Assembly: GCA_025060695.1 (NCBI GenBank)
Contig: JANXBH010000002.1
Coordinates: forward strand, 82,996 to 146,995
Reading direction: 5' to 3'
DNA: 64,000 nucleotides
From: a candidate division WOR-3 bacterium
Lineage (GTDB): Bacteria > Hydrothermota > Hydrothermia > LBFQ01 > DSFT01
Shown: one piece after another, positions 12,683 to 55,106 of the stretch
Numbering within the stretch: position 1 is the stretch's first letter
How the letters are laid out: each line of letters opens with the position of its first letter
Position numbers and translations under genes: made by a program
Notes under the pieces: generated by a model
Seen by the model: the letters and a program-made list of their open reading frames with translations, nothing else
Databases searched by the model: none
What the model was told of the DNA's origin: nothing

Positions 12683-14096
12683 CTTTATATTTCTTCTTTT
12701 AGAGGAAAACATAAAAAAACATGTATATTTTCTATCAAACGATTACTTAGAAGGAAGGCTTTGTGGTTATAATCAGAAGGCAAGAGACTACATTGAATTT
12801 CATCTAAAAAGATATGGTTATGAAGTAATTAAACAGGAATTTGAAGTAGAGGGGAAAATTAAAATAGATAGTTTTCAAACAAATTTAAGAATTCCAATAA
12901 AACCACTATATTTTACGAGTAGTGGATATGTAAAATCTGAAGAATTTTCCATTATTGATGGTGATAGCTTTGATAATATAGGTTTAATTCATAAGACTAT
13001 TGAAGAAAAAAATAAAAACAAAAAAGGTGTAATATTTTTACTATCCCATCCTATTTCAAAAAGCTACTTTGATAAGAACTTAGGAATAGTCGCCTTACAG
13101 CTTCCAAAAGAATATAAGGATAGTTTAAAAAATAAGAATTTCTTTGTATATCTAAAAGTTTCAAGAGAGAAAGTAAAGGGAGAGAATATATTTGCCGTTA
13201 AAAAGGGAAAAAGTTTAAAATATATAATAGTTGGTGCACATTATGACCATCTTGGATATGGAGATGTAAGTAGTTTAGATACTATATATGATATTCATAA
13301 CGGTGCGGACGACAATGCAAGTGGTGTTGCAGGGGTATTAGAGCTTGCCAATTACTATAAAAACAGGGATGTTAGCGATAATATAGTATTTGCATTTTGG
13401 GACTGTGAAGAAGTTGGGACAATTGGTTCAGAATACTATATTAAAAATCCAATATTTCCACTTGAAAATACAAAAATTTATATAAATTTTGATATGATTG
13501 GCAGATTAAAAGATAGTTCACTTTTAATTATAGGCTCAAAAACTGCTGTTGAAATTGAAGATATATTAAATAGAAGAAATAAACTCTTTAAATTAAAACT
13601 TTCCAATAGTGGTATAGGTTTTAGCGACCAAAATGCATTTTACAATGCTAAAATACCTGTTTTACACTTCTTTACAAATGTCCATCAAGAATATCATAGG
13701 ACAACTGATGATGCGGAACTTATAAATTATGAGGGACAAAAACAGATTTTACTTTATGCTATTGATGTAATAGATGAAATATTGAAGACTGAAACTTTAA
13801 CCTTTAATAAAGTTGAAGAGGAAAAACCTGCAAGAATTTCAAGAGGCGTTAGGCTTGGTATTATTCCAGATTATACTTATGAAGGAGAAGGAGTAAGAAT
13901 TTCAGGTGTTTTAAAGAATACACCTGCACAAAATATAGGTTTAACTCAAGGAGATATTATTTTAAAAATAGGAAAATATGAAACTAAGAATATATATGAA
14001 TTAACATATGCACTCTCAAAGTTTAAAAAATCACAAAGAACAACGATACTTTATAAAAGGGACAATAAAGTAATGAAATCTAATATTAAGTTCTAA
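12675..14096 (+). CDS. M28 family peptidase with C-terminal PDZ domain
   Basis: 'GAHYDHLG', 'GADDNASG' and 'FWDCEEVG' (M28); C-terminal 'GVRISGV...GDIIL' PDZ. Confidence 0.7.
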   Translation: MISFIFLLLEENIKKHVYFLSNDYLEGRLCGYNQKARDYIEFHLKRYGYEVIKQEFEVEGKIKIDSFQTNLRIPIKPLYFTSSGYVKSEEFSIIDGDSFDNIGLIHKTIEEKNKNKKGVIFLLSHPISKSYFDKNLGIVALQLPKEYKDSLKNKNFFVYLKVSREKVKGENIFAVKKGKSLKYIIVGAHYDHLGYGDVSSLDTIYDIHNGADDNASGVAGVLELANYYKNRDVSDNIVFAFWDCEEVGTIGSEYYIKNPIFPLENTKIYINFDMIGRLKDSSLLIIGSKTAVEIEDILNRRNKLFKLKLSNSGIGFSDQNAFYNAKIPVLHFFTNVHQEYHRTTDDAELINYEGQKQILLYAIDVIDEILKTETLTFNKVEEEKPARISRGVRLGIIPDYTYEGEGVRISGVLKNTPAQNIGLTQGDIILKIGKYETKNIYELTYALSKFKKSQRTTILYKRDNKVMKSNIKF

Positions 14097-17272: not shown

Positions 17273-18756
17273 TATAGGAATTTTGTAATTATTTTTAAAT
17301 AATTTTCATATCTCTCTTTGTTTATTTTCCCCATGGAAACCGCTTCTACTATTGAGCATCCCTCTTCCTTGATATGAAAACAATCTCTAAATGCACACTT
17401 GTATTTACTAAACTCCCTAAAGCAATTTCTAACATCCTCCTTTTTCATGATTTCATTTAGTTCTATCTTTGAAAATCCCGGAGTATCTGCTATAAATGTT
17501 TCATTATCAATAGAATATAGTTTTACTTCAGTAGTAGTTTGGGTTCCTCTTTTTAACCTTTTGCTAACTTCACCTATTCTTATATCTACGTTAGCTAAAG
17601 CTTTAATTAGTGAACTCTTACCTACACCACTCGGTCCAGCTAACACTACCAAGTCCCCCCTTATTCTATTTAAAAGTATATCCAAGTTCATATTTTCTTT
17701 TACACTAACCGTAATCACTTCATACCCAGCATCTTTATAAATACTTACATATCTTTCTAATTCTTCATTTGGTGTAATATCTACTTTATTGAAAACTATT
17801 ATACTTGGAATATTTAAAAATTCACACGCACAAAGAATTTTATCTAACTGAATTTGAACAATTTCAGGTTCTCGTATTGTAAACATTAAAATACACTTAG
17901 ATACATTTGCAATAGGTGGTCTTGGTAATAAATTTGTCCTTTCTTTTATTTTTTCAATTACAAAAAACTCACCTTCTCTTTTCCCAACAACTATATCTCC
18001 TACATATATTTTTCTTTCAGATTTTAATAATTTTCCTCTTGGAATAGCCCTAAAGACCTTGCCTTTTGAGATTACACTTAATTTTTGACCCTCTCTTGAA
18101 ATAACAGTTCCTATACATAAGTTCTTTCTAATAATATCAAGTATTTCTTCAATAACTTCATCCTCCCTTAAATTAGTTGTGTCTATTATAAATGCATCAC
18201 GTGAAGGTCTAAGCGGTGATATTTCTCTATTTAAATCTGAAATATCTCTATTTTTTAGAATTTCCAGAATATCCTCATATGATACATTACTTTTATTTAA
18301 CTGCTTATATCTTCTCATTGCCCTTTCTTCTAATTTTGCGGTTATGTAGAACTTATAATCTGCATCTTTCAAAACAACTGTCCCAATATCCCTTCCCTCT
18401 ACTATTGCTCCATCTTTTGAAAGTTCACGTTGAATGTCAATTAAAAAATCTCTAACTTGCTTAAATTTAGAAATTTCAGATGCAAGATTTCCTACTTTTT
18501 CATCCTTAATATTATCAGTTATATCTTCTCCATTCAAGAATGTTCTTGCAGTTTTATTTATAAATTTTTGTTCTATCTTTAGATTTTTTAAAAATTCAAA
18601 ATTATTATAGTTTTGCATCTTATTCTGGATTATATAGTATGCAATCGCTCTGTATAAAGCCCCGGTTTCTACATACTTTATATTTAGAATCTCACTTAGT
18701 TTTTTTGCAATAGAACTTTTTCCCGAACCTGCTGGACCATCAATGGCAATAATCAT
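17272..18756 (-). CDS. cmk-rsgA: fused cytidylate kinase (N-terminal) and ribosome small-subunit-dependent GTPase RsgA (C-terminal)
   Basis: N-terminus 'IAIDGPAGSGKSS' (Cmk, about 210 aa). C-terminus has an OB domain, then permuted GTPase motifs 'VFNKVD', 'GPSGVGKSS' and 'DTPGF', and a Zn finger 'CAFRDCFHIKEEGC' (RsgA). One uninterrupted 494-aa ORF. Confidence 0.8.
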   Translation of the reverse strand: MIIAIDGPAGSGKSSIAKKLSEILNIKYVETGALYRAIAYYIIQNKMQNYNNFEFLKNLKIEQKFINKTARTFLNGEDITDNIKDEKVGNLASEISKFKQVRDFLIDIQRELSKDGAIVEGRDIGTVVLKDADYKFYITAKLEERAMRRYKQLNKSNVSYEDILEILKNRDISDLNREISPLRPSRDAFIIDTTNLREDEVIEEILDIIRKNLCIGTVISREGQKLSVISKGKVFRAIPRGKLLKSERKIYVGDIVVGKREGEFFVIEKIKERTNLLPRPPIANVSKCILMFTIREPEIVQIQLDKILCACEFLNIPSIIVFNKVDITPNEELERYVSIYKDAGYEVITVSVKENMNLDILLNRIRGDLVVLAGPSGVGKSSLIKALANVDIRIGEVSKRLKRGTQTTTEVKLYSIDNETFIADTPGFSKIELNEIMKKEDVRNCFREFSKYKCAFRDCFHIKEEGCSIVEAVSMGKINKERYENYLKIITKFL

Positions 18757-21008
18757 TAGTAGTATGGACCTAAATTAAAGTGAGTTTTAAATTCTTTGTA
18801 CTTTAAACTATATGCAAAATCAAATCCCATAATTCCTACTATCGGAACCTCTATTCTAAAACCTATACCAATTGCATCATAAAGGTTTCTAAAGTCTATA
18901 GTTTTAATTGCCCACCAGCTATTTCCTGTTTCGTAAAATAATGAGATATAAAATTGGTCAGCAGGTCTAATTCTTTCCTCAAATGTAAACCTAAAAAAGT
19001 GCTTTCCTCCAAGAACGCTTGCACCCACCCTTGTCCCGATTGACCTAAAATCATAACCCCTTAAGCCCAATGGTCCTACGTCTCCAAGTGCAAAATATTC
19101 ATATGGTGGAAGATCCTGCTTTGCCAATATTGAAAATATTGAACCCCAGTTTACTCTAAGAAATGATACTAACTTATCTTTGTAATTGGGAATTAGTATA
19201 ATTAGTTCGGGAATAAATTTTATATAATGCAAATTTCCACCAATTGGACCACCTGTAATAGTCCAAGGAAAACTAAATGAATATCCCTTTGAAGAATTAA
19301 ACACTCTGTCTCTTGTATCATAGCTAAAGGTTGTAGTTAGTGAGCTTGATAGAACCCTTGGATTTTTTGTCCAAAAATCATAAAATTGACTTCCTTCATA
19401 TAGTGGACTTATATCATAAACAGAAATGTACTCAAATGTATAGTCAAATTTTATTCTTGAAAATAAATTCCAAAGTCTTCTACCATAACTTATGGAAATC
19501 CCTGTATTTCTTTGATTAAAAGTAAAAAGATATCTATTTAGACTATAAATATTTATACCCACAAGAATAGGTTTTCCTCCGAACCAAGGTTCAGTAAACG
19601 AAATTTGAAAGTTTTGTCTTCTTGCTCCATACTCCGCTAAAAAACCAATAGTCCAGCCTCTTCCAAGAAAATTTGGCTGCTGTAAATTTACATTAAAAAA
19701 TAGTCCATCAAGCTGACTATAACTTGCACCTGCTCCAATTTGACCTGTAGGCTTTTCCTCAACTTTTATCTCTAAATCTACAAGACTAGAATCTTCTAAA
19801 ACTGGCTTAAAGTTTACTCCTATATTTGAAAAGTAGTTTAAATAGTAGAGATTTCTATAAGAAAGTAAGAGCAAGCTTCTATTAAAGTAGTCTCCAGGAA
19901 ATATATAAATTTCTCTTCTAATAATTTCATCCCAAGTTTTAGTATTTCCATATATATTTACAAGTCTAACTTTCACTTTCCAATTTTCCTTAATCTTAAA
20001 CTTCACATTAATTGTACTATCGTTTTTTTCTTCAATAGGTTCAACTTGTGCATATATATACCCGCTATCAGCATATAAACTACTTATATTATTTGAGCTT
20101 TCTAAAACTTTTGCCCTTGAATATAATTTAGAATTATACCAAATACCATAACCTAATCTATATCTAATTGAATTAAAGAAGTTTAGTGGCTTTTTAATAG
20201 TTATCGCATTTTCTAATTGACTATTTTTAAACTTACTGTTTCCTTCAAAATTAATACTACCAAAATAGTATTTTTTACCTTCATTTAGGAAAATTTTTAT
20301 TTTTACAAACTTTTCTTCATATTCAAACTTAAATGAATCCACTTTAAAGTCAGCAAAACCACTATTTTTATAAAAATCTTCTAATGTTATTAAGTCTTTA
20401 TCAAATTTTTCCTGCGAGAAATAGCCTCCCCTTAATATCTTTCTAATAAAATTAACCTCCTTATTTGATAGTAAATTCTTCAAGAGCCTATCAGAAAAAC
20501 TTCTATTTCCGTAAAATTCAATCTTTGATATTCTATACTTTTGTCCTACATTACCAGAGATTATTAATTCTACTTTTGAATTATCTATAAATTTTTCTCT
20601 GATTTCTATCTTTGGATTCACATAACCCTTAGTAATGTAAAATTTTTCTATTAACTTAGAAATTTTATATTTATTGTAATTACTTGCTGGAAGACCTTTA
20701 TAAAATGATATTGAATCTTCAAATTCTTTTGAAACTTTCTTAATTTCCCACTTAAAGCCATTTATTGTAGGATAGTCTGAAACTTTAAATATTAAATCAA
20801 GTGTATCCTTTTTAAACTTACCATATACTTCAAAACTATCCAAGAAACCCTTTTCATATACGTCATATAAATAGTTTCTAAAGAATGGTTCTTGAAATGG
20901 CATATTTTCCTTTAAGAGCAAATTGTAAAGAAAGCTACTTTTTGAACGATATTTTAACCCTTGAACTTCAATTTTCCCTATAAACTGACCTAAAATGATT
21001 ATTAGCAA
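18756..21008 (-). CDS. bamA: outer membrane protein assembly factor BamA (Omp85)
   Basis: 750 aa with POTRA-like repeats and a C-terminal aromatic-rich beta-barrel. Confidence 0.8.
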   Translation of the reverse strand: MLIIILGQFIGKIEVQGLKYRSKSSFLYNLLLKENMPFQEPFFRNYLYDVYEKGFLDSFEVYGKFKKDTLDLIFKVSDYPTINGFKWEIKKVSKEFEDSISFYKGLPASNYNKYKISKLIEKFYITKGYVNPKIEIREKFIDNSKVELIISGNVGQKYRISKIEFYGNRSFSDRLLKNLLSNKEVNFIRKILRGGYFSQEKFDKDLITLEDFYKNSGFADFKVDSFKFEYEEKFVKIKIFLNEGKKYYFGSINFEGNSKFKNSQLENAITIKKPLNFFNSIRYRLGYGIWYNSKLYSRAKVLESSNNISSLYADSGYIYAQVEPIEEKNDSTINVKFKIKENWKVKVRLVNIYGNTKTWDEIIRREIYIFPGDYFNRSLLLLSYRNLYYLNYFSNIGVNFKPVLEDSSLVDLEIKVEEKPTGQIGAGASYSQLDGLFFNVNLQQPNFLGRGWTIGFLAEYGARRQNFQISFTEPWFGGKPILVGINIYSLNRYLFTFNQRNTGISISYGRRLWNLFSRIKFDYTFEYISVYDISPLYEGSQFYDFWTKNPRVLSSSLTTTFSYDTRDRVFNSSKGYSFSFPWTITGGPIGGNLHYIKFIPELIILIPNYKDKLVSFLRVNWGSIFSILAKQDLPPYEYFALGDVGPLGLRGYDFRSIGTRVGASVLGGKHFFRFTFEERIRPADQFYISLFYETGNSWWAIKTIDFRNLYDAIGIGFRIEVPIVGIMGFDFAYSLKYKEFKTHFNLGPYY

Positions 21009-37370: not shown

Positions 37371-38723
37371 TTACTGATAAATCTTTATATACATATCTTT
37401 TTTGTGCTTTTCGTAGATTTCTGAAATTTTTTCCTCTATTTTCTTATTAGTTAATAATAACTTGATTTGCTCTCTTACTTCATCGTAAGTGGTAATTTTC
37501 TCAGGTATAAACTCCTTTACTCTTAAAATTGCATAAAATCCATCTTTATATATTGGTCCTATTATGGAATTTTGCTTCGCGTCTTTAAAATAGGGTTTAA
37601 AATCGTTTGGAAGTGCATCTTCTGGGATATAACCAATGTCCAATGGTGCTACTGAATATTCCCTCGCTATTTTCTCAAAGTCGCTCTTTGCACCTTCTAA
37701 TATGGAAATTACTTTTTCCCTTGCATTTTCAATATCCTTACTTGAAGGCCTTACTTTTACTAAAATATGACTAATTTTAATAGAGTCAGCAATTCTATCT
37801 TCAATTTTGAATATATTATATCCCAGTGGAGTTCTTATTGGTCTTGTATAAGAATTTTTAGGTTGTGAAAAAAGTTCAATTATAATATCTTGACTTAAGA
37901 ACTGACTTAAATAGTCTCTCTTTACCCATCCAATTTGAACTATACTATCATCAGATAGTGTTTTTGCAAGTTTATTAAAATTTTCACCTTTCTGAAGTCT
38001 TTTGTATATACTTTTAATTTTATCATATGCCTTTTCTTCTTGCTCAAATGAAACTTGAACTGGAATAATAATTTGTTGTAAATAATAAATATTGGGCTGT
38101 CTTGGAAACGAGTCTTTATGCGTTTGATAAAACTCCCTTATCTCGTTTTCAGTTACACTAATATATGGAGATATATACTTTGAAATATACTTCTGGATTA
38201 AAATCTGCTTGCTTATAAAACTTCTTTGGCTTTCAATAAATTCAGTTATTGTCATTTTGCTATTTTTTAGCTCTTGTTCAAATACATTCCTTCCAATTAT
38301 CAAAAATACTTTGTTTGCAAGTTCAGGGTCAGAAAAGTTAATTAGGCTATCAGGTATATTAAAATCTCTCAGTATTCTCCTTAATGCAGTTGTATCATTT
38401 GGATTTATTCCCTCATCCTGTATCTTTCTAAAAACCTCAATTCTACCATACTGAAAATAAATATTATTTATGTAAGTCTTTGAGAAGTTTTGAAATTCAT
38501 CTTCTGATATATTTAAGGTTGTATCAATTTTTGCAAGTGCTAAAATCACCCTTTGTTTAATAAGATTTTCCAAAATTGCCCTTTTTATAGAGTCGTTTTC
38601 AGTAAGTGTAGTCGCCCTATAAAGCTCTTCTAATTCTGAATAAAATATAGGTTCATCATTTACAACAGCAATAACTTTATCAATTAGTTTTAAGGTATCA
38701 GAAAATAGAAATATAAATAACAT
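37371..38723 (-). CDS. SurA-like periplasmic chaperone / parvulin PPIase
   Basis: SurA N-terminal-like domain followed by a parvulin domain ('ISHILVK'). Confidence 0.6.
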   Translation of the reverse strand: MLFIFLFSDTLKLIDKVIAVVNDEPIFYSELEELYRATTLTENDSIKRAILENLIKQRVILALAKIDTTLNISEDEFQNFSKTYINNIYFQYGRIEVFRKIQDEGINPNDTTALRRILRDFNIPDSLINFSDPELANKVFLIIGRNVFEQELKNSKMTITEFIESQRSFISKQILIQKYISKYISPYISVTENEIREFYQTHKDSFPRQPNIYYLQQIIIPVQVSFEQEEKAYDKIKSIYKRLQKGENFNKLAKTLSDDSIVQIGWVKRDYLSQFLSQDIIIELFSQPKNSYTRPIRTPLGYNIFKIEDRIADSIKISHILVKVRPSSKDIENAREKVISILEGAKSDFEKIAREYSVAPLDIGYIPEDALPNDFKPYFKDAKQNSIIGPIYKDGFYAILRVKEFIPEKITTYDEVREQIKLLLTNKKIEEKISEIYEKHKKDMYIKIYQ

Positions 38724-39759: not shown

Positions 39760-40652
39760 TTTCTAAAAAGGTTTTTAAGTAAAAATATTACATTTGCAGG
39801 TCTTTCAGCAAGTCTTCTCATAAAGTATGGATACCATTGACTACCATATGGAAGATAAATTCCACAATTATATCCTTCATCTTTTAGTCTTAAGAGGAGC
39901 TCAAATTTTATTCCATATAACATCTGAAATTCAAACTTAGTTTTATCTATATTCAAATTTTTAACATGATTTATTATTTTCTCATCATGAGTAGCAATTA
40001 AAGTATATTGAGTATTCTTTAGCAAAATTTCCGCAATTTCAATAAATTTTCTATCTACCTCCTTTTTACTTTCATACGCTATTTCCCTTGGTTCTTTGTA
40101 TGCACCTTTTACTAATCTAATAATGGGATTGTATTTTATAAGCTCATTAACATCCTCAATACTTCTTTTTAAATAAGATTGTATTGCAAGGGCTATTTTC
40201 TTGGTAGGATAATCAGTTTTAATTTTTTTGTAAATTTCAATTGTTGCATCTACGTAATTTGAACTTTCCATGTCAATTTCAATAAAATTAGAAACTTCTA
40301 CAAGTTGTCTTAAATAGTCATAAGTTAAATTTTTGTCAATATCAAGACCAATACTTGTTAGCTTAACTGATATAGAATTATTCCCACTTATATATGAGAG
40401 TATATTTTTATATTCCAAGAAAGTATTTTCTACTTCTTGTTTGTCTATTACACTTTCTCCCAAGTAATCAATAGTAATTCTTATACCTCTTTGATTTAAA
40501 TTTTCCAAAACCTTTAGTGCGTCCTCCAAGTTATAACCTGCTATGAACCTGTTTACAAGTGGTTTTGTGATTCTTGAACTTACTATGAACTTTTCAAAAT
40601 TTCTATTTTTTGAAAGATAGAAAAATAAATTTTTAAAAACTCCATTAAGCAT
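39756..40652 (-). CDS. proline dehydrogenase
   Basis: 'RFIAGYNLEDALKV' and 'IDYLGE', like monofunctional PRODH. Confidence 0.6.
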   Translation of the reverse strand: MLNGVFKNLFFYLSKNRNFEKFIVSSRITKPLVNRFIAGYNLEDALKVLENLNQRGIRITIDYLGESVIDKQEVENTFLEYKNILSYISGNNSISVKLTSIGLDIDKNLTYDYLRQLVEVSNFIEIDMESSNYVDATIEIYKKIKTDYPTKKIALAIQSYLKRSIEDVNELIKYNPIIRLVKGAYKEPREIAYESKKEVDRKFIEIAEILLKNTQYTLIATHDEKIINHVKNLNIDKTKFEFQMLYGIKFELLLRLKDEGYNCGIYLPYGSQWYPYFMRRLAERPANVIFLLKNLFRK

Positions 40653-41916
40653 TGAATGTTACTTCCTTCTCAATATCCTCCGTCGGCAACACAAGTATCG
40701 GTATTTCTATAGGTTGTTTTATTAAGTGATTTGAAAGCTTGTCCTTTACTTGAACTTTTATGTTTATAGTACCATAGTAGTCTTTCGGTGTGGTAAGCTT
40801 AAGAACAAACTCTCTCTTATTAGACTTATATCCTCCATCAAATTTAACTTGGGGATTTACAGTTATATCTATGACATAATCGCAAAGATTATTAAATTTT
40901 ATGTTAATTTCTCCTTCACTTCCTGAAGCAATAAATATAGGGACTTGAATTTCAGTAATCTTTGCATCAAATGTTTCATTTATGTATACTTCCCTTTTTA
41001 TCCTTTTACCATTTCTTATTTCTGTTATAATATAAGGCAGAAAATTTTGAACTTCCGAAAATGCTAAATATAACTCTTCAAGCATTTCACTTGCGCTATT
41101 AAATGTCTCATCCTCCATTTCTAAGGCTTTGAGAATAAACCTTTCAACTTTTTCTGGTATGTTTTGATTTATATATCTCGGAAGCTCTAATTTATTTGAA
41201 AGTTTCTCCGCATGTGTCCTTGCAATATCCTCTTCATCATATGGTGGCTTTCCTGTAAGCATGTAGTATAACAAAGCTCCAACACTATATAAATCCGCCT
41301 CATATGGAGTAATATCTAAACCCCTTAGGACTCTTGGAGAAATATACACAGGAGCACTAAGGAAACCTGATAACTTCAATCTTCTTATAGCCTTTTGAGC
41401 AATATGCCCAAGTCCAAAATCAGTTATAACAACATTCCCATCTTTAAATCTAATATTTTCAGGTTTTAAATTTTTATGTGCAATACCATGACCGTGAGCA
41501 TAAACCAATGCATTTAATATGTCCTCTGTAATACGAAGTGCATCTTCCAAAGATAACTTTCCCTTTTTCTTAACTAAGCTCCTTAAATCCTCCTCTAAAT
41601 AATCCACTACAAAGTAAAATATCTTACCTTCCATTTCCTTATCAATATCTAAAATCCAATTTATATTGGGATGACTTTCAAGAGCTGTGATATGCCTTAT
41701 TTGTTCCAAAATCTCACCTGCAATCTCCTTTAATATTTGAACATCCTTTTGGTCTCTTATTAGGTCAATTCTTAATATTTTAACTATTACGTCTTTATGT
41801 AAAAACTGATGTACAGCCTTATATACATGAAATATTGGACTTACCGCAATCTCTTCCTTTAATAAGTATTTTCCACTAAAAACTTTGTTTGCAAACAAAT
41901 TTTTATGCATTTTCAA
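40645..41916 (-). CDS. Hanks-type serine/threonine protein kinase with C-terminal domain of unknown function
   Basis: 'HKNLKPENI', 'DFGLG' and 'APE'-like 'SPR'; the likely true start is the ATG at 41910. Confidence 0.8.
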   Translation of the reverse strand: MKMHKNLFANKVFSGKYLLKEEIAVSPIFHVYKAVHQFLHKDVIVKILRIDLIRDQKDVQILKEIAGEILEQIRHITALESHPNINWILDIDKEMEGKIFYFVVDYLEEDLRSLVKKKGKLSLEDALRITEDILNALVYAHGHGIAHKNLKPENIRFKDGNVVITDFGLGHIAQKAIRRLKLSGFLSAPVYISPRVLRGLDITPYEADLYSVGALLYYMLTGKPPYDEEDIARTHAEKLSNKLELPRYINQNIPEKVERFILKALEMEDETFNSASEMLEELYLAFSEVQNFLPYIITEIRNGKRIKREVYINETFDAKITEIQVPIFIASGSEGEINIKFNNLCDYVIDITVNPQVKFDGGYKSNKREFVLKLTTPKDYYGTINIKVQVKDKLSNHLIKQPIEIPILVLPTEDIEKEVTFNA

Positions 41917-41946
41917 AATTTTAAAGTTTATGCTGTAAAATTTTAG
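41915..41946. promoter_or_regulatory. element copies for the divergent Ser/Thr kinase (CTTTAAAATTTTG, 4 nt from ATG 41910) and the surface-redox operon (TAAAATTTTAG, 4 nt from ATG 41949)
   Basis: sequence read directly. Confidence 0.45.
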
Positions 41947-41948
41947 TT

Positions 41949-43727
41949 ATGATTTACATTTTATTATCTAATATAATATTTTCTGAAAGTTTTGAAGGGG
42001 GAAGTTTTCCTCCAACTGGATGGGTAAAACTAGATCTTGGAACTTCAAATAGCGATGGATGGCAAAGAACTACTTCAAAAAAGAGAAGTGGTAACTATTC
42101 TGCATATGTAAGCTATCAGCCTTCTGCCAATACAAAAAACGAATGGCTTATAACACCTGCTATTAATCTATCAAATTATACAAAAGCATTTTTAATATTT
42201 TATGAAGATGAGAATTGGTGGTTCAGTTATGGAGGAGTACATAGGATAAGAATCTCTACAACTTCTCAAACTGATACTAATTCTTTCGTAATAGTAAGAG
42301 AAATGACACCTGCAAATCATTCAATAACAGGTTTTTCAGGTGATCCTGTAATGGTTGATATTTCCTCCTTTGTGGGAAATTCTACTGTATATATAGCATT
42401 TCAATATCAGGGTAAAGATAGAGATGACTGGTTCATAGACGATGTTAGAGTTTTTGTGCCATATCATTATGATGTAAAACCTGTTAAGATTCTAAATCCA
42501 AAACCATTTGTAGGTTCTAATATTATACTTCCAAATGTGCAAATAATGAATTATGGTGTAAATAATCTAACGAATATTCCAGTAAGACTTATAATAAGGG
42601 ACTTCAATAATAATATAGTATATAATGAAATTAAATATGTTAACTCACTTAATTCCTTTGAGTATAGTAATGTTTCATTCCCTCAATTTACAGGTTTAAA
42701 CAATAAAATCTATAAACTTGAAGTTATAACGGAACTTCAAAATGACCAAGACAGAAGTAATGATACAATAAGAATGAACGCATATACTTACATAACTTCA
42801 CAAAAACCACTATTTGAGAGATTTACTAACACCTCATGTGGTCCCTGTGGTCCTGCAGACAACTACATGCACCAGATATACCAAACCTATCTATATAATG
42901 TGGGAATAGTGGTTTATCATACCTGGTGGCCTTCAAGTTCCGATCCAATGTATGTCTATAATACTTCTCAAAACCAGCAAAGGACCAATTACTATAGTGT
43001 AAATGCAGTACCATGGGCTTGGATAAATGGTACAGTAAATGCATCATCCAGTTATACTCAATGGATGAACTTAGTAAATAGTGAAATGAACTATAGAAAA
43101 ACTCCCATACTATTTGCGTTTGATAATACAAATAGTTATGTAAGCTTGAGTGGAAATGGTCAAATAGCTTTTCATATAAACCAAGTAGGTGAAATGGAAA
43201 GTGGAAACTATAAAATAAGAATAGCAATACTTGAAGATAGTATTTACTACAGTGCTGCAAATGGAACACAATTTCATCCCATGACATTTAGGCATTTAAT
43301 TGAGGATAACTTTTCACCGTCTACAAACCAGAATATATACAAAACTTATACATTTACATTTAGACCTGATAAAGCACCACCTGATAATATTGATAGTGTA
43401 AATGTAGATAAGATGGTGGCTGTAGTATTTATCCAAAGAGATGACGATAAGAGCGTATGGGCAGTTGATGTGTATAAGTTCGTAAATGTAAATGTTTCCG
43501 AAGATAAAAAAGATAGTAATTTTTATTTAAAGGGTAATAGTTTCATACTTATAGGTAATAATTTAGCAAATTTAAAAATATATGATGTTTCAGGTAAACT
43601 ATTAATAGATAGGAGTTTTAATCTAAAGGGTAAAATTGAGTTTATTCCAAAGCTTAAAAGAGGGCTATATATTTATAAAGCTGAAATCGGGAGTAAAACA
43701 TGGGAAGGAAAATTCTTATATTATTAG
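41949..43727 (+). CDS. secreted multidomain protein: N-terminal cleaved-adhesin/choice-of-anchor-like domain, CARDB-like domain, thioredoxin-motif (CGPC) domain, T9SS-type C-terminal sorting domain
   Basis: 'ESFEGGSFPPTGW', 'FTNTSCGPCGPAD', and a C-terminal 'KIYDVSGKLL...LKRGLYIYKAEIGSKTWEGKFLYY' typical of Por/T9SS CTDs. Confidence 0.55.
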   Translation: MIYILLSNIIFSESFEGGSFPPTGWVKLDLGTSNSDGWQRTTSKKRSGNYSAYVSYQPSANTKNEWLITPAINLSNYTKAFLIFYEDENWWFSYGGVHRIRISTTSQTDTNSFVIVREMTPANHSITGFSGDPVMVDISSFVGNSTVYIAFQYQGKDRDDWFIDDVRVFVPYHYDVKPVKILNPKPFVGSNIILPNVQIMNYGVNNLTNIPVRLIIRDFNNNIVYNEIKYVNSLNSFEYSNVSFPQFTGLNNKIYKLEVITELQNDQDRSNDTIRMNAYTYITSQKPLFERFTNTSCGPCGPADNYMHQIYQTYLYNVGIVVYHTWWPSSSDPMYVYNTSQNQQRTNYYSVNAVPWAWINGTVNASSSYTQWMNLVNSEMNYRKTPILFAFDNTNSYVSLSGNGQIAFHINQVGEMESGNYKIRIAILEDSIYYSAANGTQFHPMTFRHLIEDNFSPSTNQNIYKTYTFTFRPDKAPPDNIDSVNVDKMVAVVFIQRDDDKSVWAVDVYKFVNVNVSEDKKDSNFYLKGNSFILIGNNLANLKIYDVSGKLLIDRSFNLKGKIEFIPKLKRGLYIYKAEIGSKTWEGKFLYY

Positions 43728-44752
43728 TCTTAATTTTCGCTTGTAAAAAGAAAGAAGTTAGTGAAGATACTACTTTGATTAATCCCATTCTTGTAGAACA
43801 ATTTACTAACTATAAGTGTTTTCCGTGCAATGGTGCAAACGAGATAGTTGACTCATTTCAGAGAGTTTATAGTGATAAAGTCTTTGTTGTAAGGTATCAT
43901 GTAAATGTCCCGTATCCAAATGACCCAATATATATTCCATACTCAGATAGCATGGTAAATTACTATAATTTGGACCTTAGCTCAGGTGTTCCAATTACTA
44001 TAATCTCAGGAGGCTTTAAGGATATAGGATATGATGATACTCAAAGGGAAGACTATAAACAAAGATGGTTGAATAAAATGAGGGAGTTTTCAAAGATAGA
44101 ATATCAATATAAAGCCAATGGAAATGTGGAACATTTTGGAAATAGTGCAAATGTAAATATTACTCTTGATAAAAGTTTATCACCAAATCATAGGGCAAAT
44201 ATATATATAACTGAATACGACGTGAAACTTCCGCAAGGAAGCTCAAAACCATATTCTCACTTTGCCTTAAGAAGTGCATCTACTGGTTTAAGTGCAAACT
44301 TTACAATAAATGAAAGCTGGAATAAAAACAACTTGTATATACTCTTTGTCATAAGAGATGAAAACAAAAAGGTAATTTCACTATGGCAAGGAAAATTACC
44401 TAATGAAATTTTGACTTATTATCTTCAAAACGACTCAATTCTTAATGTGAACCAAAATGAAACAGGTAAGTTCTATTTAAAATTAAAAAATAATACTAAT
44501 CAAGTTCAAAGAATACTAATTGACATTTCAGGTGTTCCTAAAACTTGGACCCCAATACTTTGCTTTAGAGGTGTTTGCAGAAATACAACCACCTTAGAGG
44601 ATAGTATACTACCAAACTATGAAACCGCTGACAGTGCCTTTTATTTTGGTTTTATACCTACTACAAGTGAAAATGTTATTATTGAAATGAAAGTTTCCAT
44701 TGAAGGTAAAAACTTATATAAGACTATAAACGGAAGGGTTATTGTCCCATGA
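43700..44752 (+). CDS. lipoprotein paralogous to the central domains of the preceding protein (CFPC thioredoxin-like motif)
   Basis: lipobox 'FAC'; 'FTNYKCFPCNGAN...VVRYHVNVPYPNDPIY' aligns with 'FTNTSCGPCGPAD...VVYHTWWPSSSDPMY' of the upstream gene. Confidence 0.5.
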   Translation: MGRKILILLVLIFACKKKEVSEDTTLINPILVEQFTNYKCFPCNGANEIVDSFQRVYSDKVFVVRYHVNVPYPNDPIYIPYSDSMVNYYNLDLSSGVPITIISGGFKDIGYDDTQREDYKQRWLNKMREFSKIEYQYKANGNVEHFGNSANVNITLDKSLSPNHRANIYITEYDVKLPQGSSKPYSHFALRSASTGLSANFTINESWNKNNLYILFVIRDENKKVISLWQGKLPNEILTYYLQNDSILNVNQNETGKFYLKLKNNTNQVQRILIDISGVPKTWTPILCFRGVCRNTTTLEDSILPNYETADSAFYFGFIPTTSENVIIEMKVSIEGKNLYKTINGRVIVP

Positions 44753-45150
44753 TATTTTTTATTGGCTTTTCAATAACAGATATTTATGGCAAAAGTTATA
44801 ATCTTGCGGATTTTAATAGTTATATTATTTTAGATTTTTGGGCGACTTGGTGCGCCCACTGTGATGAAGAGCTTGATAAATTAAATAAAGAATTTTATAA
44901 TGACAGCTTATTTAAGGTTGTTGCAATAAGCCTTGATACCAAGAGAGATGTTGAAAAAATTAAACAAATTGCAAAAAGTAGAAATTGGAACTTTATAATA
45001 AGTATTGATGAGGGGAAAAAAATTGCATCCAAGTATGGTATTGTAGGGCTTCCTACAGTTGTCATTTTAGATAAGAACTTAAAAGTAAAAAAGAAAATTA
45101 CTGGTTATCATCCAAATCTTTTAGAACTAATAAGAAAAGCAGTTAAATGA
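44749..45150 (+). CDS. TlpA-like thiol:disulfide oxidoreductase (thioredoxin fold)
   Basis: 'DFWATWCAHCDEE' CxxC and 'GIVGLPTVVIL'. Confidence 0.75.
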   Translation: MIFFIGFSITDIYGKSYNLADFNSYIILDFWATWCAHCDEELDKLNKEFYNDSLFKVVAISLDTKRDVEKIKQIAKSRNWNFIISIDEGKKIASKYGIVGLPTVVILDKNLKVKKKITGYHPNLLELIRKAVK

Positions 45151-46319
45151 TTTTTTTCATATCCATAGGTAATAACTTTTGGTTCTCCGATAGTATTAGA
45201 AATTTTTTTAGTTTAAACACCAACCTTAATTTTAAGGACATTCAAGGTTATGTAGAACTAAGGGACTATCGAAGTCCATCCATTATTTATGGACAAAACT
45301 ACAACTTCAATATTTTCAGAGCATACTTAAAATATAAACTATTAACTATAGGGGATAATACCATCTCTTTTGGAAGAGGGCTATCGTTATTTTTGTCATA
45401 TGACGAAAAAGCCATATTGGAAAGTTATTTAAGGGGTATTGTGCTTGAGTTTAATAAAATTTCAATTTATGGAGGTATTAAAAGAAAATGGTTATACTAT
45501 TCTTCTGATAATGATACGACCTATATTTTAGGCTCATACTTTCAATATAGGTTTTTTGGAGTAAATGGACTATATTATAAGAACCAAGATTACGGTTTTT
45601 TGACCTCTTCTTACTTGGATTTTTCTAATTTTTATGTAGAAATTGCGTATAGAAATGGATATGACATATTTACATTTTCAAACAATGAGGGATATGGATT
45701 ATTTTCTTCAATTTCATTTTTTGGAATAAAGCTTGAGTATTGCTATTATGATAAAATATATGAAAGTTTTAATTTACCTGCCACTATAAATAGCTATGGA
45801 CTACTTTCTTCATCTGCGAGAAATGAAACAGGCTTATCCTTAAGTTATGCCTATAAAAATTTTTTAGCAGAAATTTCAAGAACATACGATATTAAATGGA
45901 GTAAAAATTTACTTAATTACTACAATATTAGTTTCTATAACGAATTTTCAAAAATCAGAGCTTATAGAGTATTTTCTATAAACCAAAATTTGGACGATTA
46001 CGTTTTAAGCTTAGATTTAAAAATAAAAAGTCTTATGGGAGCAATTGAATACAGAAATAGAAAGAATGAAGCTCAACCATTTATTTCTGTTGGTTATATA
46101 TATGAATTTCTAAATATTGCCGTAAATTATCGTAGGTTTTTCAATAGTAATAAATTTGACTATTTTTTTGAGTTAAAATACGATAATACGAAAAATATGA
46201 TTATTTCTATAGGATATGGTGAGTTTTCAGGTGATATTGTATGCTCCTCTGGTATTTGTAGATACGAACCACCATTTAAGGGTCTAAAAAGCTCCATAAA
46301 TTTCAATTATTCTTTTTAA
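45147..46319 (+). CDS. putative outer-membrane beta-barrel protein
   Basis: aromatic-rich alternating pattern with a C-terminal 'NFNYSF' (terminal Phe). Confidence 0.4.
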   Translation: MIFFISIGNNFWFSDSIRNFFSLNTNLNFKDIQGYVELRDYRSPSIIYGQNYNFNIFRAYLKYKLLTIGDNTISFGRGLSLFLSYDEKAILESYLRGIVLEFNKISIYGGIKRKWLYYSSDNDTTYILGSYFQYRFFGVNGLYYKNQDYGFLTSSYLDFSNFYVEIAYRNGYDIFTFSNNEGYGLFSSISFFGIKLEYCYYDKIYESFNLPATINSYGLLSSSARNETGLSLSYAYKNFLAEISRTYDIKWSKNLLNYYNISFYNEFSKIRAYRVFSINQNLDDYVLSLDLKIKSLMGAIEYRNRKNEAQPFISVGYIYEFLNIAVNYRRFFNSNKFDYFFELKYDNTKNMIISIGYGEFSGDIVCSSGICRYEPPFKGLKSSINFNYSF

Positions 46320-46335
46320 AACTTTAAAATTTAGC

Positions 46336-47334
46336 TTGATAATGGAACTTAGTTTAATTTTCAAATTGGACTTTTATCCATTTTTTTCTTTTACTGAAAA
46401 TAACTATATTTACTTTGTAGGAAATAAAGTTGAGGCATATAATAATAACAGAAAAATTTATAGCTATAGACTAAATTCAAGGTTTATAAGTGCTTGTAAG
46501 TTGGGTAATTCGCTATTTATTTTAACTGATAACCAAGTCATAAATTTTAGCTACAAGAACAATAAAGTGATTAATTCTATAAAATCTTCCTTCTCAAGCA
46601 TAAATTGTTATAAAAATAACATAGCTCTAAGTAATAACACTCAAACTTACATTTTTGATACAAATTTTAAAAATCTTTCAGTTATATCTTTAAATAACCT
46701 CATAGGAGATTTCATTTCTGACGCTGATACAGTTTCAAAAAGGGTTAGACTTATTTCTATATCTAACTTAGATACTTTGACCATAAGAAACTTTGAGGGT
46801 TTTATACCATACTTTGGTAAAAAGGATAGCATATATAGTTTAATTGCCGGATTTTCAAAAAGAAACTTCTATTTATACTTTTTTGAAAATAAAAGCTTGC
46901 GATGGTATAATAAAATATCAGTTAAAATAATACTTTCAAATGCTATAATTAATCCAAAAGATAGAACGATTTTACTATATGGTTCATCACAAAGAACATT
47001 TTATATAAATCTAAAAGACATTTCAGGAGAGGACATATGGATATATAATCCAAGAGTTTTAGGTATATACCTACTTGATGAGAGTTTTAAAGATGTACTA
47101 ATAGAGAATAAAAAGATAATTGCGGTAGGTTATTCAATGAGGGAAGGTGAAAAGGTTGGAGTTATTAAAGTTTTAGATTATACAACAGGAGAAGAAATAT
47201 TACATTATCAAGATCAAGAAGTTGAAGATTTTATAAGGATACTTAAGGTAAAGGAGGAAATGTATTTAATTGGACTATCTAAGAAGTTCATAGGTGTTTA
47301 TAGATTAGATTTTAAACCTAAGACTATTTACTAA
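46336..47334 (+). CDS. hypothetical protein (possible beta-propeller)
   Basis: ORF only; last gene of the operon. Confidence 0.3.
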   Translation: MIMELSLIFKLDFYPFFSFTENNYIYFVGNKVEAYNNNRKIYSYRLNSRFISACKLGNSLFILTDNQVINFSYKNNKVINSIKSSFSSINCYKNNIALSNNTQTYIFDTNFKNLSVISLNNLIGDFISDADTVSKRVRLISISNLDTLTIRNFEGFIPYFGKKDSIYSLIAGFSKRNFYLYFFENKSLRWYNKISVKIILSNAIINPKDRTILLYGSSQRTFYINLKDISGEDIWIYNPRVLGIYLLDESFKDVLIENKKIIAVGYSMREGEKVGVIKVLDYTTGEEILHYQDQEVEDFIRILKVKEEMYLIGLSKKFIGVYRLDFKPKTIY

Positions 47335-47339
47335 ATTTC

Positions 47340-47351
47340 CTTTAAAATTTT
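47340..47351 (+). promoter_or_regulatory. CTTTAAAATTTT element 5 nt upstream of the proS ATG
   Basis: exact 12-mer. Confidence 0.5.
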
Positions 47352-47356
47352 CTTTT

Positions 47357-50039: not shown

Positions 50040-50075
50040 ATATTTCTTACTCTTTTAGTAGTAAATAAAATTTAG

Positions 50076-50087
50076 CTTTAAAATTTT
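50076..50087 (+). promoter_or_regulatory. CTTTAAAATTTT element about 28 nt upstream of the cbaA ATG, with an intervening AGGAGG SD
   Basis: exact 12-mer; the spacing fits a -10-like element plus a short 5' UTR. Confidence 0.5.
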
Positions 50088-50115
50088 TTTCGTTGTTTAA
50101 ACAGGAGGTTGAAAA

Positions 50116-51735
50116 ATGAAAATTGCAAGGAGCTTAAAAAACCTTCTCTTTTGGGAGTTAACTATACCAATTATTCTTTTGGTGCTCGGAATTTACCATG
50201 GTCTAATGCAAGTTCTCTATAGAGCTGGAATTATAAAATCAATGGAATTTCTCGGAATAAACTACTATCAAGGTTTGACTTTACATGGTGTAGTAAATGC
50301 GATTGCTCTTACTACATTTTTTGCAGTGGCTTTTGGAAATGCGATAATAGTATACTTCCTAAAAAGAGAGATAAATTTAAAAGTTGCATGGCTTTCATTT
50401 TGGACAATGTTAATAGGAACACTCTTAGTTGCATATGCTATACTTATTCAAAAAACAGACGTGTTATATACTTTCTATCCTCCACTTGTTGCACCACCTG
50501 CATTTTATATAGGTGCAGTTTTATTAGTAGTGGGCTCTTGGATAGCTTTTTTCAATTGGATACCCACATATTTAGCTTATAAAAAGGAGAATAAAGAAAC
50601 ACCACTTGCAGTATACGGAATCTTAACCACTTTCTTAATTTGGTTTCTTTGCACTATACCTGTTGCAATTGAAATTCTATTTATGCTACTTCCAAAATCG
50701 TTAGGTCTTGTAGAGGAAATAAATAATCTACTTGCAAGAACACTATTTTGGATGTTTGGTCATGCACTTGTATATTTTTGGTTATTACCTATATACGTGG
50801 CCTTATATGCAATGCTACCTAAAATTATAAATTCAAAGCTATTTTCGGATACATTCGCAAGAATTTCTTTTGTTCTATTTATAATATTTTCAATACCTGT
50901 TGGAGTTCATCATCAATATGCTGATCCAGGTATAGGTACATCTTGGAAACTAATTCAAGGTTTCTTAACATTCGCCGTAGCAATTCCTTCATTTATTACC
51001 GCATTTACTGTTTCAGCAACGCTTGAATATGCTGGAAGAAAAAATGGAAGCAACGGTCTTTTCGGGTGGCTATTTAAATTACCATACTTCGATAAGGAAA
51101 AGTGGCTCTTTGCATACTTCATAAGTGGTTTATTCGTATTTATAATTGGAGGTATAACAGGTATAGTCAATGCTTCATACAATGTTAATCTTGTAGTTCA
51201 TAATACATCTTATGTACCGGGCCACTTTCACCTTACAGTTGGAGGTCTTGTATTTCTTGGAATTATTGGAATAACACTATATTTAATTTCTGAAATTACA
51301 GGAAAGGAAGTAAAGTTTAAAACATTAAACTTACTATCCCCATATCTTTGGCTAATAGGTTCAATAATTTTTGGCTTCGGTATGATGGGTGGTGGTATAT
51401 TGGGTATCCCAAGAAGAACACACATGGGTTTAACCTATTCAAATCCTGATAGTCCTTTATATAATCCAGATTGGATGATATGGAATCACATATCAGTTAT
51501 AGGTGGTGTTATTATGTTCATTTCTATGGTTCTGTACTTTATTGTATTCTTTGCTACAGTATTTTCTAAAAAGGAGAGAGAAGAGAAATTAGAAATAATG
51601 GATAGTGAGGCACTTGAAAAAACAGATAATAAAGTTTTACACGAGTTTAAACTGTGGATAGCTATTGCTCTAATTCTCATAGTTATTGCATACACATTCG
51701 TATATTATGACGTATTTAGATCAACAGGAGGCTAA
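50116..51735 (+). CDS. cbaA: ba3-type (B-family) cytochrome c oxidase subunit I
   Basis: 'FWMFGHALVYFWLLPIYVALYAMLPK' matches ba3 CbaA 'WWFGHPIVYFWLLPAY'; about 13 TM helices; strong SD. Confidence 0.85.
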   Translation: MKIARSLKNLLFWELTIPIILLVLGIYHGLMQVLYRAGIIKSMEFLGINYYQGLTLHGVVNAIALTTFFAVAFGNAIIVYFLKREINLKVAWLSFWTMLIGTLLVAYAILIQKTDVLYTFYPPLVAPPAFYIGAVLLVVGSWIAFFNWIPTYLAYKKENKETPLAVYGILTTFLIWFLCTIPVAIEILFMLLPKSLGLVEEINNLLARTLFWMFGHALVYFWLLPIYVALYAMLPKIINSKLFSDTFARISFVLFIIFSIPVGVHHQYADPGIGTSWKLIQGFLTFAVAIPSFITAFTVSATLEYAGRKNGSNGLFGWLFKLPYFDKEKWLFAYFISGLFVFIIGGITGIVNASYNVNLVVHNTSYVPGHFHLTVGGLVFLGIIGITLYLISEITGKEVKFKTLNLLSPYLWLIGSIIFGFGMMGGGILGIPRRTHMGLTYSNPDSPLYNPDWMIWNHISVIGGVIMFISMVLYFIVFFATVFSKKEREEKLEIMDSEALEKTDNKVLHEFKLWIAIALILIVIAYTFVYYDVFRSTGG

Positions 51736-54239: not shown

Positions 54240-54682
54240 ATGCAATTCACCTTCATCTAATTCTAAATCATTTTCCAACGGTTGGATTTATAATAGTTCT
54301 ATTTATTTTTCTTCACGGTTTATATAGAAAGAATGAAGAATTTAACTTTGTTTCCTTATGGTTCATAATTGTACTTTCAGTAATTACTATTTTTGTATAT
54401 CTTTCAGGAGAGGGTGCGGAGGAATTACTTAAAAACAAATTGGATAAAGAACACATAGAAATTCACGAGAGTTTTGGTAAAATTTCTTTATACCTTTCAA
54501 TTGTTCTTGGTTTACTCTCAGCATTTTCACTTATTACAAAAAAGCTTAGATGGTTAGTTTTAATTTTACTAATAATAAATATCTTGTCTTTGGGCATTAC
54601 AAGCTTTTATGGGGCACAAATAAGGCATGAAGAAATAAGGAATTTACCAATTAAAAAGGAGGTAAGAAACTATGAACGCTGA
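54236..54682 (+). CDS. His-rich 4-TM membrane protein coupled to cbaB (possible oxidase accessory subunit)
   Basis: 'HLHLILNHFP' at TM1; overlaps the cbaB start by 11 nt. Confidence 0.35.
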   Translation: MNAIHLHLILNHFPTVGFIIVLFIFLHGLYRKNEEFNFVSLWFIIVLSVITIFVYLSGEGAEELLKNKLDKEHIEIHESFGKISLYLSIVLGLLSAFSLITKKLRWLVLILLIINILSLGITSFYGAQIRHEEIRNLPIKKEVRNYER

Positions 54683-55106
54683 AAAACTTGCATTGAGTTT
54701 ATCAAGTATCTTACTTTTGCTATTTTTCGCACTAATTTTATATGGTGCATACGTAAGGGGTATAGACTTACCAACTTGCATAACTAATGTAAAGCCCTTT
54801 GATAAAGACACAGTAATTAAAATTTCTGAAAATAGATATGAGATTAGATATATCGCAAGACAATTTAGTTTCTTCCCTATGGAAGTAAAAATACCTAAGA
54901 ATTCCATAGTGGACATATACTTAACAAGTCCGGATGTTACACATGGAATGCAAATTGAAAATACTAACGTAAATCTAATGGCTATTCCCGGAGCTATTAC
55001 TTATTACAGGGTAAAGTTTGATAAACCTGGAGAATACAGAGTAGTTTGTCATGAATACTGTGGACTTGGGCATCAGAATATGATGAGCAAAATTATCGTA
55101 TATTAG
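54672..55106 (+). CDS. cbaB: ba3-type cytochrome c oxidase subunit II (CuA)
   Basis: 'TSPDVTHGMQIENTNVNLMAIPG' and CuA ligands 'CHEYCGLGHQNM' match Thermus CbaB. Confidence 0.85.
   Translation: MNAEKLALSLSSILLLLFFALILYGAYVRGIDLPTCITNVKPFDKDTVIKISENRYEIRYIARQFSFFPMEVKIPKNSIVDIYLTSPDVTHGMQIENTNVNLMAIPGAITYYRVKFDKPGEYRVVCHEYCGLGHQNMMSKIIVY

Follow-up and report, generated by a model that had tools for sequence, protein, structure and literature searches.

Positions 41,949 to 47,334 of a 64,000-nucleotide stretch of contig JANXBH010000002.1 from a candidate division WOR-3 bacterium (this whole stretch is called the window below) carry five co-directional genes, which are designated g1 to g5 (Table 1). 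The first four encode a type IX secretion system (T9SS)-type surface protein with a thioredoxin module, a lipoprotein related to that module, a TlpA-like protein, and a predicted outer-membrane β-barrel of the DUF6029 family. These four genes are one tightly coupled unit, and this unit is the conserved one. The arrangement is far more widespread than one operon; it occurs in at least three phyla of the FCB group, WOR-3, Calditrichota, and Bacteroidota. The G+C content of the region is ~30%, and the g1 protein is 100% identical to a database protein from candidate division WOR-3 (P0001).

Table 1. Genes, domains, motifs, and neighbouring features of the g1–g4 locus (positions in the window).
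Feature	Position	Strand	Length	Description
g1	41949..43727	+	592 residues	T9SS-type surface protein: choice-of-anchor J domain, β-sandwich, HBP35/Omp28-type thioredoxin and β-sandwich module, C-terminal sorting domain
g1 residues 11-168	41979..42452	+		choice-of-anchor J/cleaved-adhesin-like domain; NF038128 3.1e-15, 56.7 bits (cutoff 30)
g1 residues ~175-275	42471..42773	+		CARDB-like β-sandwich; family profile vs. PDB 2l0d (cell surface protein), E = 3.4e-8
g1 residues 280-524	42786..43520	+		HBP35/Omp28-type module; thioredoxin fold, then β-sandwich
g1 CGPC (C297, C300)	42837..42848	+		active-site motif with the only two cysteines of g1; N-terminus of helix 1 in the model
g1 residues 532-589	43542..43715	+		T9SS type A C-terminal sorting domain; TIGR04183 26.6 bits (cutoff 23)
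g2	43700..44752	+	350 residues	lipoprotein: Omp28/HBP35-type thioredoxin domain and WOR-3-specific C-terminal domain
g2 CFPC (C40/C43)	43817..43828			thioredoxin-type motif
g2 CFRGVC (C288-C293)	44561..44578			second invariant pair, in the C-terminal domain
g3	44749..45150	+	133 residues	TlpA/ResA-like thioredoxin-fold protein
g3 WATWCAHC	44851..44862			motif of the TlpA-like protein
g4	45147..46319	+	390 residues	short DUF6029-family protein, predicted outer-membrane β-barrel of ~24 strands
g4 CSSGIC (C366-C371)	46242..46259			invariant hairpin directly before the last strand
g5	46336..47334	+	332 residues	lineage-restricted hypothetical protein, co-directional, outside the conserved module
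g1/g2 overlap	43700..43727		28 nucleotides	end of g1, within the T9SS sorting domain
Ser/Thr protein kinase gene	40645..41916	-		divergent from g1
Kinase-g1 spacer	41917..41948		32 nucleotides	between the two start codons
Antisense reading frame	42826..43287	-	153 residues	inside g1; unsupported
M28 peptidase gene	12675..14096	+		short N-terminus
BamA gene	18756..21008	-		short N-terminus
SurA-like protein gene	37371..38723	-		short N-terminus
Haem-copper oxidase subunit I gene	50116..51735	+
Haem-copper oxidase subunit II-like gene	54672..55106	+

The reading frames of g1 and g2 overlap by 28 nucleotides, and those of g2 and g3 and of g3 and g4 by 4 nucleotides each. A first-pass annotation, made from the nucleotide letters before any database search, described a six-gene operon, although it listed five genes, whose members all overlap by 4–28 nucleotides. 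Five open reading frames are present, all where that annotation put them, and the coupling by overlap is limited to g1–g4, with g4 and g5 lying 16 nucleotides apart. The motifs quoted in it were all found again, namely ESFEGGSFPPTGW, FERFTNTSCGPC (C297/C300), FTNYKCFPC of g2, and WATWCAHC of g3, as was the C-terminal Phe of g4 (...NFNYSF). The length of the g1/g2 overlap is the same in most WOR-3 loci described below (L003, L008, L009, L010, L012, and L013), and the WOR-3 species that keep it are only ~45% identical. This conservation of length suggests translational coupling of g1 and g2. Scanning of positions 41500-50200 for promoters and terminators was uninformative, as the counts in this AT-rich DNA equalled those in shuffled sequence.

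The g1 protein is composed of four parts. At its N-terminus, the choice-of-anchor J domain is recognized above the curated cutoff, and the g1 family profile also matches the Lys-gingipain adhesin domain (3km5) with the e-value 2.2e-10. The second part was proposed to be CARDB-like; this is backed indirectly by the profile match to 2l0d and by the presence of PF07705 in several g1 homologues, but the region of g1 itself has no direct Pfam match. At the C-terminus, the sorting domain also exceeds its cutoff, and the Por sorting domain structure 8glj_D matches g1 with the e-value 0.008.

The third part, between the β-sandwich and the sorting domain, belongs to the HBP35/Omp28 type. The Pfam Omp28 profile (PF11551) matches g1 residues 345-506 with the e-value 7.5e-8 and 32.8 bits, slightly short of the gathering score (34.9), and PF11551.15 is assigned in the database to the identical protein P0001. 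For the NCBIfam profile NF033782 the scores are 30.1 bits for g1 and 32.2 bits for g2, with the cutoff 150. Sequence searches of PDB with g1 only or g2 only returned the sorting domain and a marginal thioredoxin match, and a family profile was needed; the profile from a 62-sequence alignment (A1) matched 2r2c (2.4e-8) and 5y1a (2.8e-8). Among 102 g1 homologues, the CxxC motif lies at the same place in every one with an Omp28-like region, often as the only cysteines of the protein. The sole invariant columns of the alignment A1 are C297, C300, D332, and P355.

The AlphaFold model of g1 residues 280-524, computed on the A1 alignment, has a predicted local distance difference test (pLDDT) value of 93 and a predicted template modelling score of 0.90. 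It shows a β-α-β-α-β-β-α thioredoxin fold followed by a β-sandwich. The CxxC motif is placed at the N-terminus of helix 1 (model residues 21-38), and the invariant P355 (P76 of the modelled fragment, in AVPWAW) directly precedes strand 3 (77-80). The closest structural match of the module is HBP35, a haemin-binding protein implicated in haem utilisation. The β-sandwich of the module also resembles that of the lipid-binding protein Unc119, and ScsC, DsbA-like, and copper-resistance thioredoxins are among the fold and profile matches of the g1 family. Thiol-disulfide exchange by the module is a prediction, and the homologue in which such activity was assayed is HBP35 (PMC2907840).

The g2 protein begins with the lipobox LIFAC, whose lipid-anchor cysteine is C15, and it is predicted to be tethered to the outer membrane by this anchor. 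It is a paralogue of the g1 thioredoxin module, as proposed in the first-pass annotation; the two align in BLASTP over 116 residues with 30% identity (E = 1e-8). The matches of g2 to NCBIfam profiles are far under the cutoffs (NF033782, 6e-8; NF045500, 2e-4). The latter profile is the "Omp28-related selenoprotein" family, which g2 and its relatives match weakly, and selenocysteine is a mark of redox-active sites. A word-index search for homologues with g2 alone reached only as far as four close relatives, and remoter orthologues were taken from the loci. All five cysteines are invariant among full-length WOR-3 orthologues of g2.

The g3 protein matches the Pfam families AhpC-TSA (63.8 bits), Thioredoxin_8 (55.9 bits), and Redoxin (51.7 bits), all well above the cutoffs, and the ResA-like profile NF002854 with the e-value 2.1e-19. 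It falls in no specific equivalog, as the scores for ResA, TlpA, DsbE, and StoA are 70.1, 48.5, 36.3, and 50 bits against cutoffs of 170, 230, 123, and 210, respectively. Thus, g3 is a TlpA/ResA/CcmG-type relative at the family level only, and it is predicted from sequence to be periplasmic. The motif is C[A/N/K]HC in all 10 of the 10 WOR-3 orthologues and C[V/L/G/K]PC in the orthologues outside WOR-3.

No Pfam match was found for g4 itself at E ≤ 1. Its 40%-identical orthologue matches PF19494 (DUF6029) with 28.3 bits (threshold 27), and orthologues in the database (P0110-P0117) are listed with PF19494.6, one of them being named DUF6029 family protein by NCBI. The profile of g4 orthologues aligns to the DUF6029 proteins of Bacteroidota. 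Of the signature YG..G..C.xG[VI]C...P.f.G, the residues Y, G, C, G, C, P, and G do not vary among the members from WOR-3, Calditrichota, and Bacteroidota. The WOR-3 form is ~130-160 residues shorter than the 538-position PF19494 model. The AlphaFold2 model of g4 (pLDDT 78.9) is an all-β barrel of ~24 strands with no plug domain, and Foldseek placed the 24-strand usher barrels FimD and PapC and LptD on top. It is likely that g4 is an outer-membrane protein. A plug-less barrel of this size calls for a partner, for which g2 is the obvious candidate.

The pattern C-x2-G-[VI]-C-R is common to g2 (CFRGVCR) and g4 (CSSGICR), and a small T9SS protein encoded next to the Winogradskyella genes of L015 contains LCFAGVC. 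The pattern C-x2-G-[VI]-C was considered as a shared client motif and rejected, as no more than three of 80 flavobacterial loci, all of them close relatives from Winogradskyella, show it outside DUF6029. A hidden Markov model of the C-terminal domain of g2 found nothing in the loci L015-L017.

The protein-level proposals of the first-pass annotation are borne out in these results: the four-part g1 (indirectly in the case of the CARDB-like sandwich), the thioredoxin fold with CGPC at the start of helix 1, the lipoprotein paralogue, the TlpA-like protein, and the outer-membrane barrel. Its central idea was also checked against two outcomes, that the cysteines lie outside a thioredoxin-like fold or that the proteins belong to a characterised non-redox family. 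The idea survives because the thioredoxin-fold model is confident and the characterised relative, HBP35, is redox-active.

The four genes recur in the order g1-g2-g3-g4 in ten WOR-3 loci (L001/L010, L003, L006-L009, L011-L013, and L101), with unrelated flanking genes and mostly with the short overlaps retained. In these loci g1 and g3 have only their two motif cysteines, and the cysteine pairs of all four proteins are invariant: CxxC in g1, CxPC and CxxGVC in g2, C[A/N/K]HC in g3, and VCSSG[IV]C in g4. The lipobox cysteine of g2 is present in all of them except for one N-terminally truncated open reading frame call. L009 and L010 are metagenome-assembled genomes titled "Thermotogota bacterium" with the WOR-3-type four-gene cluster, and their identity is as in genomes labelled WOR-3; these labels are probably mistaken.

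Beyond WOR-3, an Omp28 lipoprotein, a TlpA-like protein, DUF6029, and an Omp28-type T9SS cargo are encoded together in L015 (Winogradskyella) and L018 (Calditrichota). In L016 and L019 the TlpA-like protein, DUF6029, and the cargo are together and no recognisable Omp28-type lipoprotein gene is present. In all four loci the TlpA-like gene is directly followed by DUF6029, beside a g1 homologue. A metagenome scan with a cross-phylum DUF6029 alignment revealed at least 471 relatives, and loci were counted in the best 80 contigs, which are all of marine flavobacterial types with 53-89% identity. In these, a TlpA-like gene is immediately 5′ of DUF6029 in 68 of 69, 55 of 55 have an Omp28-type gene upstream, with a lipobox recognisable in 50, and one to three Omp28-type CxxC proteins are downstream in 45 of 47. 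The gene-neighbourhood comparison called for at first pass thus places g1–g4 in ten WOR-3 loci and the same four kinds of gene in Calditrichota and Bacteroidota. Tandem pairs of choice-of-anchor-J/Omp28-type/T9SS genes lacking a TlpA or DUF6029 gene were observed at positions 7001-11391 of L017 and 7001-11137 of L020. The pair in L017 adjoins genes for an HMA-type P1B ATPase, a CDF transporter, and a Fe/Mn superoxide dismutase.

The constancy of the neighbours bears on the one comment on DUF6029 that was found in the literature, where no function is reported. Some Wzi-barrel homologues are similar to DUF6029 by HHpred, and a possible Wzi-like role in polysaccharide secretion was suggested (PMC9603273). 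DUF6029 would then be a porin for a surface polymer, and the thioredoxin-fold genes would be unrelated passengers. This is very improbable and poorly supported, because conserved genes for OPX, Wzx, Wzy, or glycosyltransferases are absent beside DUF6029 in all examined loci. The constant neighbours are instead the TlpA-like and Omp28-type CxxC genes, and the invariant cysteine pair of the barrel ties DUF6029 itself to thiol chemistry.

The juxtaposition of the TlpA-like gene and DUF6029, often with overlap, is the tightest pairing of the module and extends to all WOR-3 loci. It would be expected if the TlpA-like protein, and perhaps the Omp28-type lipoprotein, were dedicated folding catalysts for the DUF6029 cysteine pair and for the CxxC and Cx4C pairs of the neighbours. 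Such catalysts would form these pairs, or keep them reduced, in periplasmic transit; the barrel would serve an unrelated transport, and there would be no relay across the outer membrane. The CxHC motif of the WOR-3 TlpA-like proteins is DsbA/PDI-like and agrees with this view, as does the presence of LptD among the structural matches of g4, since LptD and other large barrels depend on disulfide catalysts of the periplasm. However, the occurrence of thioredoxin folds with invariant CxxC in both a lipoprotein and a T9SS cargo of the same cluster across phyla is left unexplained. Outside WOR-3 the TlpA-like motif is the reductase-type CxPC, and, as a client, one Cx4C hairpin looks small for an enzyme that is dedicated to it and linked to it everywhere. 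We regard this explanation as unlikely.

The surroundings of the unit in the window do not belong to the conserved module. The first-pass annotation counted g5 as an operon member. It was rejected as such, since in addition to the lack of overlap none of the relatives, among them one with 65% identity, has it 3′ of g4. The g5 protein is rich in N, I, K, and Y and has no family match in Pfam or NCBIfam, and only two homologues (59% and 28% identity) were found among 1.84 billion representative proteins. The gene is located between the module and a prolyl-tRNA synthetase-like gene (proS), which is on the forward strand 22 nucleotides 3′ of g5. On the other side, the Ser/Thr protein kinase gene diverges from g1 with 32 nucleotides between the start codons. 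If both starts are right, the promoters of the kinase gene and of g1 would fall within coding sequence; alternatively, the TTG start assigned to the kinase gene is too far upstream. The antisense reading frame inside g1 is most likely spurious. Further downstream, the genes for haem-copper oxidase subunit I and a subunit II-like protein are in an unusual split arrangement, with genes for a universal stress protein, a Roadblock/LC7 protein, and a DUF2231 membrane protein between them.

These neighbours, together with the structural matches of the g1 module, bring in another explanation. Through the CxxC motif and the β-sandwich, the Omp28/HBP35-type proteins might bind a hydrophobic or metal ligand at the surface, such as haem, copper, or another thiophilic metal, and hand it to DUF6029 for import. 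The TlpA-like protein might maintain the cysteines of the binding site in reduced form, a task that TlpA performs for ScoI and CoxB. The haemin-binding protein HBP35 (PMC2907840) is the top structural match, the β-sandwich resembles Unc119, and ScsC and copper-resistance thioredoxins are among the matches. The oxidase genes of the window are 3-8 kb further downstream, and the g1-like pair of L017 is beside metal transporter and superoxide dismutase genes. The copper- and haem-related neighbours, both the oxidase genes of the window and the Cu-type ATPase of L017, are not conserved with the module, however, and no TonB-dependent receptor or haem-transport gene is linked to it. The resemblance of an Ig-like sandwich is unspecific, and the canonical thioredoxin geometry, CGPC with the invariant Pro, fits catalysis better than static binding. 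Ligand uptake is considered quite improbable.

The N-termini of g1, g3, and g4 consist of 8-12 hydrophobic residues (12 in g1) and lack a basic n-region, and the reading frames cannot be extended upstream. BamA, the SurA-like protein, and the M28 peptidase encoded in the window have the same short N-termini, which are also seen in nine other WOR-3 metagenome-assembled genomes. The lipoproteins in the window keep a basic n-region, and the g3 and g4 orthologues of Bacteroidota and Calditrichota have ordinary signal peptides of ~20 residues. The export of g1 is likely, because BamA and the SurA-like protein share the style of its N-terminus. A minimal signal peptide may be a lineage-wide property of WOR-3.

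On balance, we consider it probable, by a modest measure, that g1–g4 constitute a co-operating thiol-disulfide module of the cell envelope. This is drawn from the folds, the active-site geometry, the invariance of the cysteine pairs, and the synteny across phyla. In such a module, g3 would exchange disulfides in the periplasm, and g2 would act as an Omp28/HBP35-type thioredoxin tethered by its lipid to the outer membrane. The g1 protein would leave the cell through the type IX secretion system and stay displayed at its surface, with the thioredoxin module behind two adhesin-like domains. The g4 barrel would link the periplasmic and surface thiol proteins as a scaffold or a conduit, with g2 as the most likely partner inside or beside it. 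The exchange would most likely proceed from g3 to g2 and g4 and then to g1. At the surface, g1 could capture substrates with its adhesin-like domains and reduce or reshuffle their disulfides.

A full relay across the outer membrane is a bolder proposal and appears unlikely. Equally doubtful is its general form, in which the DUF6029 barrel, the Omp28-type lipoprotein, and the TlpA-like protein would make a thiol conduit carrying reducing equivalents out of the periplasm to T9SS-displayed surface thioredoxins. One could regard such a conduit as the cysteine counterpart of the porin-cytochrome complex MtrCAB or as an analogue of DsbD in the outer membrane. If it exists, bacteria of the FCB group could reduce extracellular disulfides, for example to open proteins for their secreted proteases. 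The electron relay to the exterior imagined in the first-pass annotation is thus retained as an envelope thiol-disulfide module, but the relay itself is plausible and stays conjectural in view of the lack of a linked donor and the CxHC motif of g3.

Several observations weigh against the co-operating module or its relay. No CcdA/DsbD/ScsB-type donor is encoded in or beside the module at any locus, and no CcdA/DsbD candidate was found in the 64-kb window (20 neighbouring or large open reading frames were compared with Pfam, and the remaining ones were screened crudely by hydropathy). In thioredoxin, DsbA, and PDI chemistry, CxHC predicts a more oxidising protein and CxPC is the reductase type. 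Because g3 has the former in WOR-3 and the latter in other phyla, a single direction of flow cannot be asserted. The contacts among the four proteins, like the order and direction of transfer, are proposed ones, and their compartments are predictions with atypical signal peptides. According to general topology of outer-membrane proteins, a hairpin before the last strand is at the outward-facing end; the cysteine hairpin of g4 is probably outward-facing on this ground, and its pLDDT is <50. In L002, L004, L017, and L020, g1-like genes are alone or in tandem, with no TlpA or DUF6029 gene nearby. The 80 flavobacterial loci are mutually related, and their counts overstate independence; this does not apply to the recurrence in three phyla, where the gene orders differ.

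The module is of interest whichever version is correct. It provides a first functional context for DUF6029 and a candidate partner set for HBP35-type proteins, consisting of a dedicated TlpA-like protein and a DUF6029 barrel. To our knowledge, the thiol-disulfide pathways of Gram-negative bacteria end in the periplasm, and we know of no account of how surface thioredoxins such as HBP35 are recharged or what their targets are. From the fixed gene set, which is shared by at least three phyla and occurs in abundant marine flavobacteria, follows a hypothesis on redox chemistry at or across the outer membrane that can be put to the test. A real relay would mean a new way of exporting reducing power. 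Without one, the genes still represent a widespread and unstudied envelope redox system, some carriers of which may be genetically tractable.

A search of the literature agreed with the initial impression that this is not a described system: neither the four-gene module nor the TlpA-DUF6029 pairing was reported, and the combination of type IX secretion, TlpA, and thioredoxin was found in one unrelated paper. The individual families are known; what is new is the g1–g4 module with its cross-phylum co-occurrence. A surface T9SS thioredoxin in itself is not new, as HBP35 of Porphyromonas gingivalis is the characterised precedent. HBP35 is a T9SS cargo that reduces insulin through its two motif cysteines, and a dsbA mutant of Escherichia coli is complemented by the HBP35 gene (PMC2907840). 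The g1 protein is only ~11% identical to HBP35 (PDB 5Y1A), shares its two-domain structure of thioredoxin and β-sandwich, and has two extra N-terminal domains, the choice-of-anchor J domain and the first β-sandwich.

The Omp28 lipoproteins (PF11551, NF033782; PDB 2R2C) are the nearest family of g2. Both g1 and g2 score under its curated cutoffs, as given above, and g2 has an extra C-terminal domain bearing the second cysteine pair. In the literature found, Omp28 appears as a surface or vesicle antigen and is never treated as a redox enzyme. With the TlpA/ResA/CcmG (DsbE) proteins, g3 shares the fold family and the WxxWCxxC motif. It differs in being short and in having CAHC instead of CxPC, whereas its orthologues elsewhere have signal peptides and CxPC, and its genetic linkage is with an outer-membrane barrel and not with genes for cytochrome c maturation or Sco/CoxB. 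The g4 protein resembles the DUF6029 (PF19494) members of Bacteroidota in its C-terminal signature and its cysteine pair, and the WOR-3 form is shorter than the family model.

As a whole, the module can be compared with LptD-LptE and MtrCAB as an architectural analogy only, in which a large barrel is encoded with a lipoprotein and with periplasmic and surface redox proteins; g1–g4 have no homology to Mtr proteins and no haems. The DsbD/CcdA-fed and ScsABCD pathways are alike in their chain of thioredoxin-fold CxxC proteins across successive envelope compartments. No membrane electron transporter is linked to the g1–g4 module, unlike in these pathways. An outer-membrane barrel and a secreted surface member further distinguish the module from the known pathways, whose last step is periplasmic.

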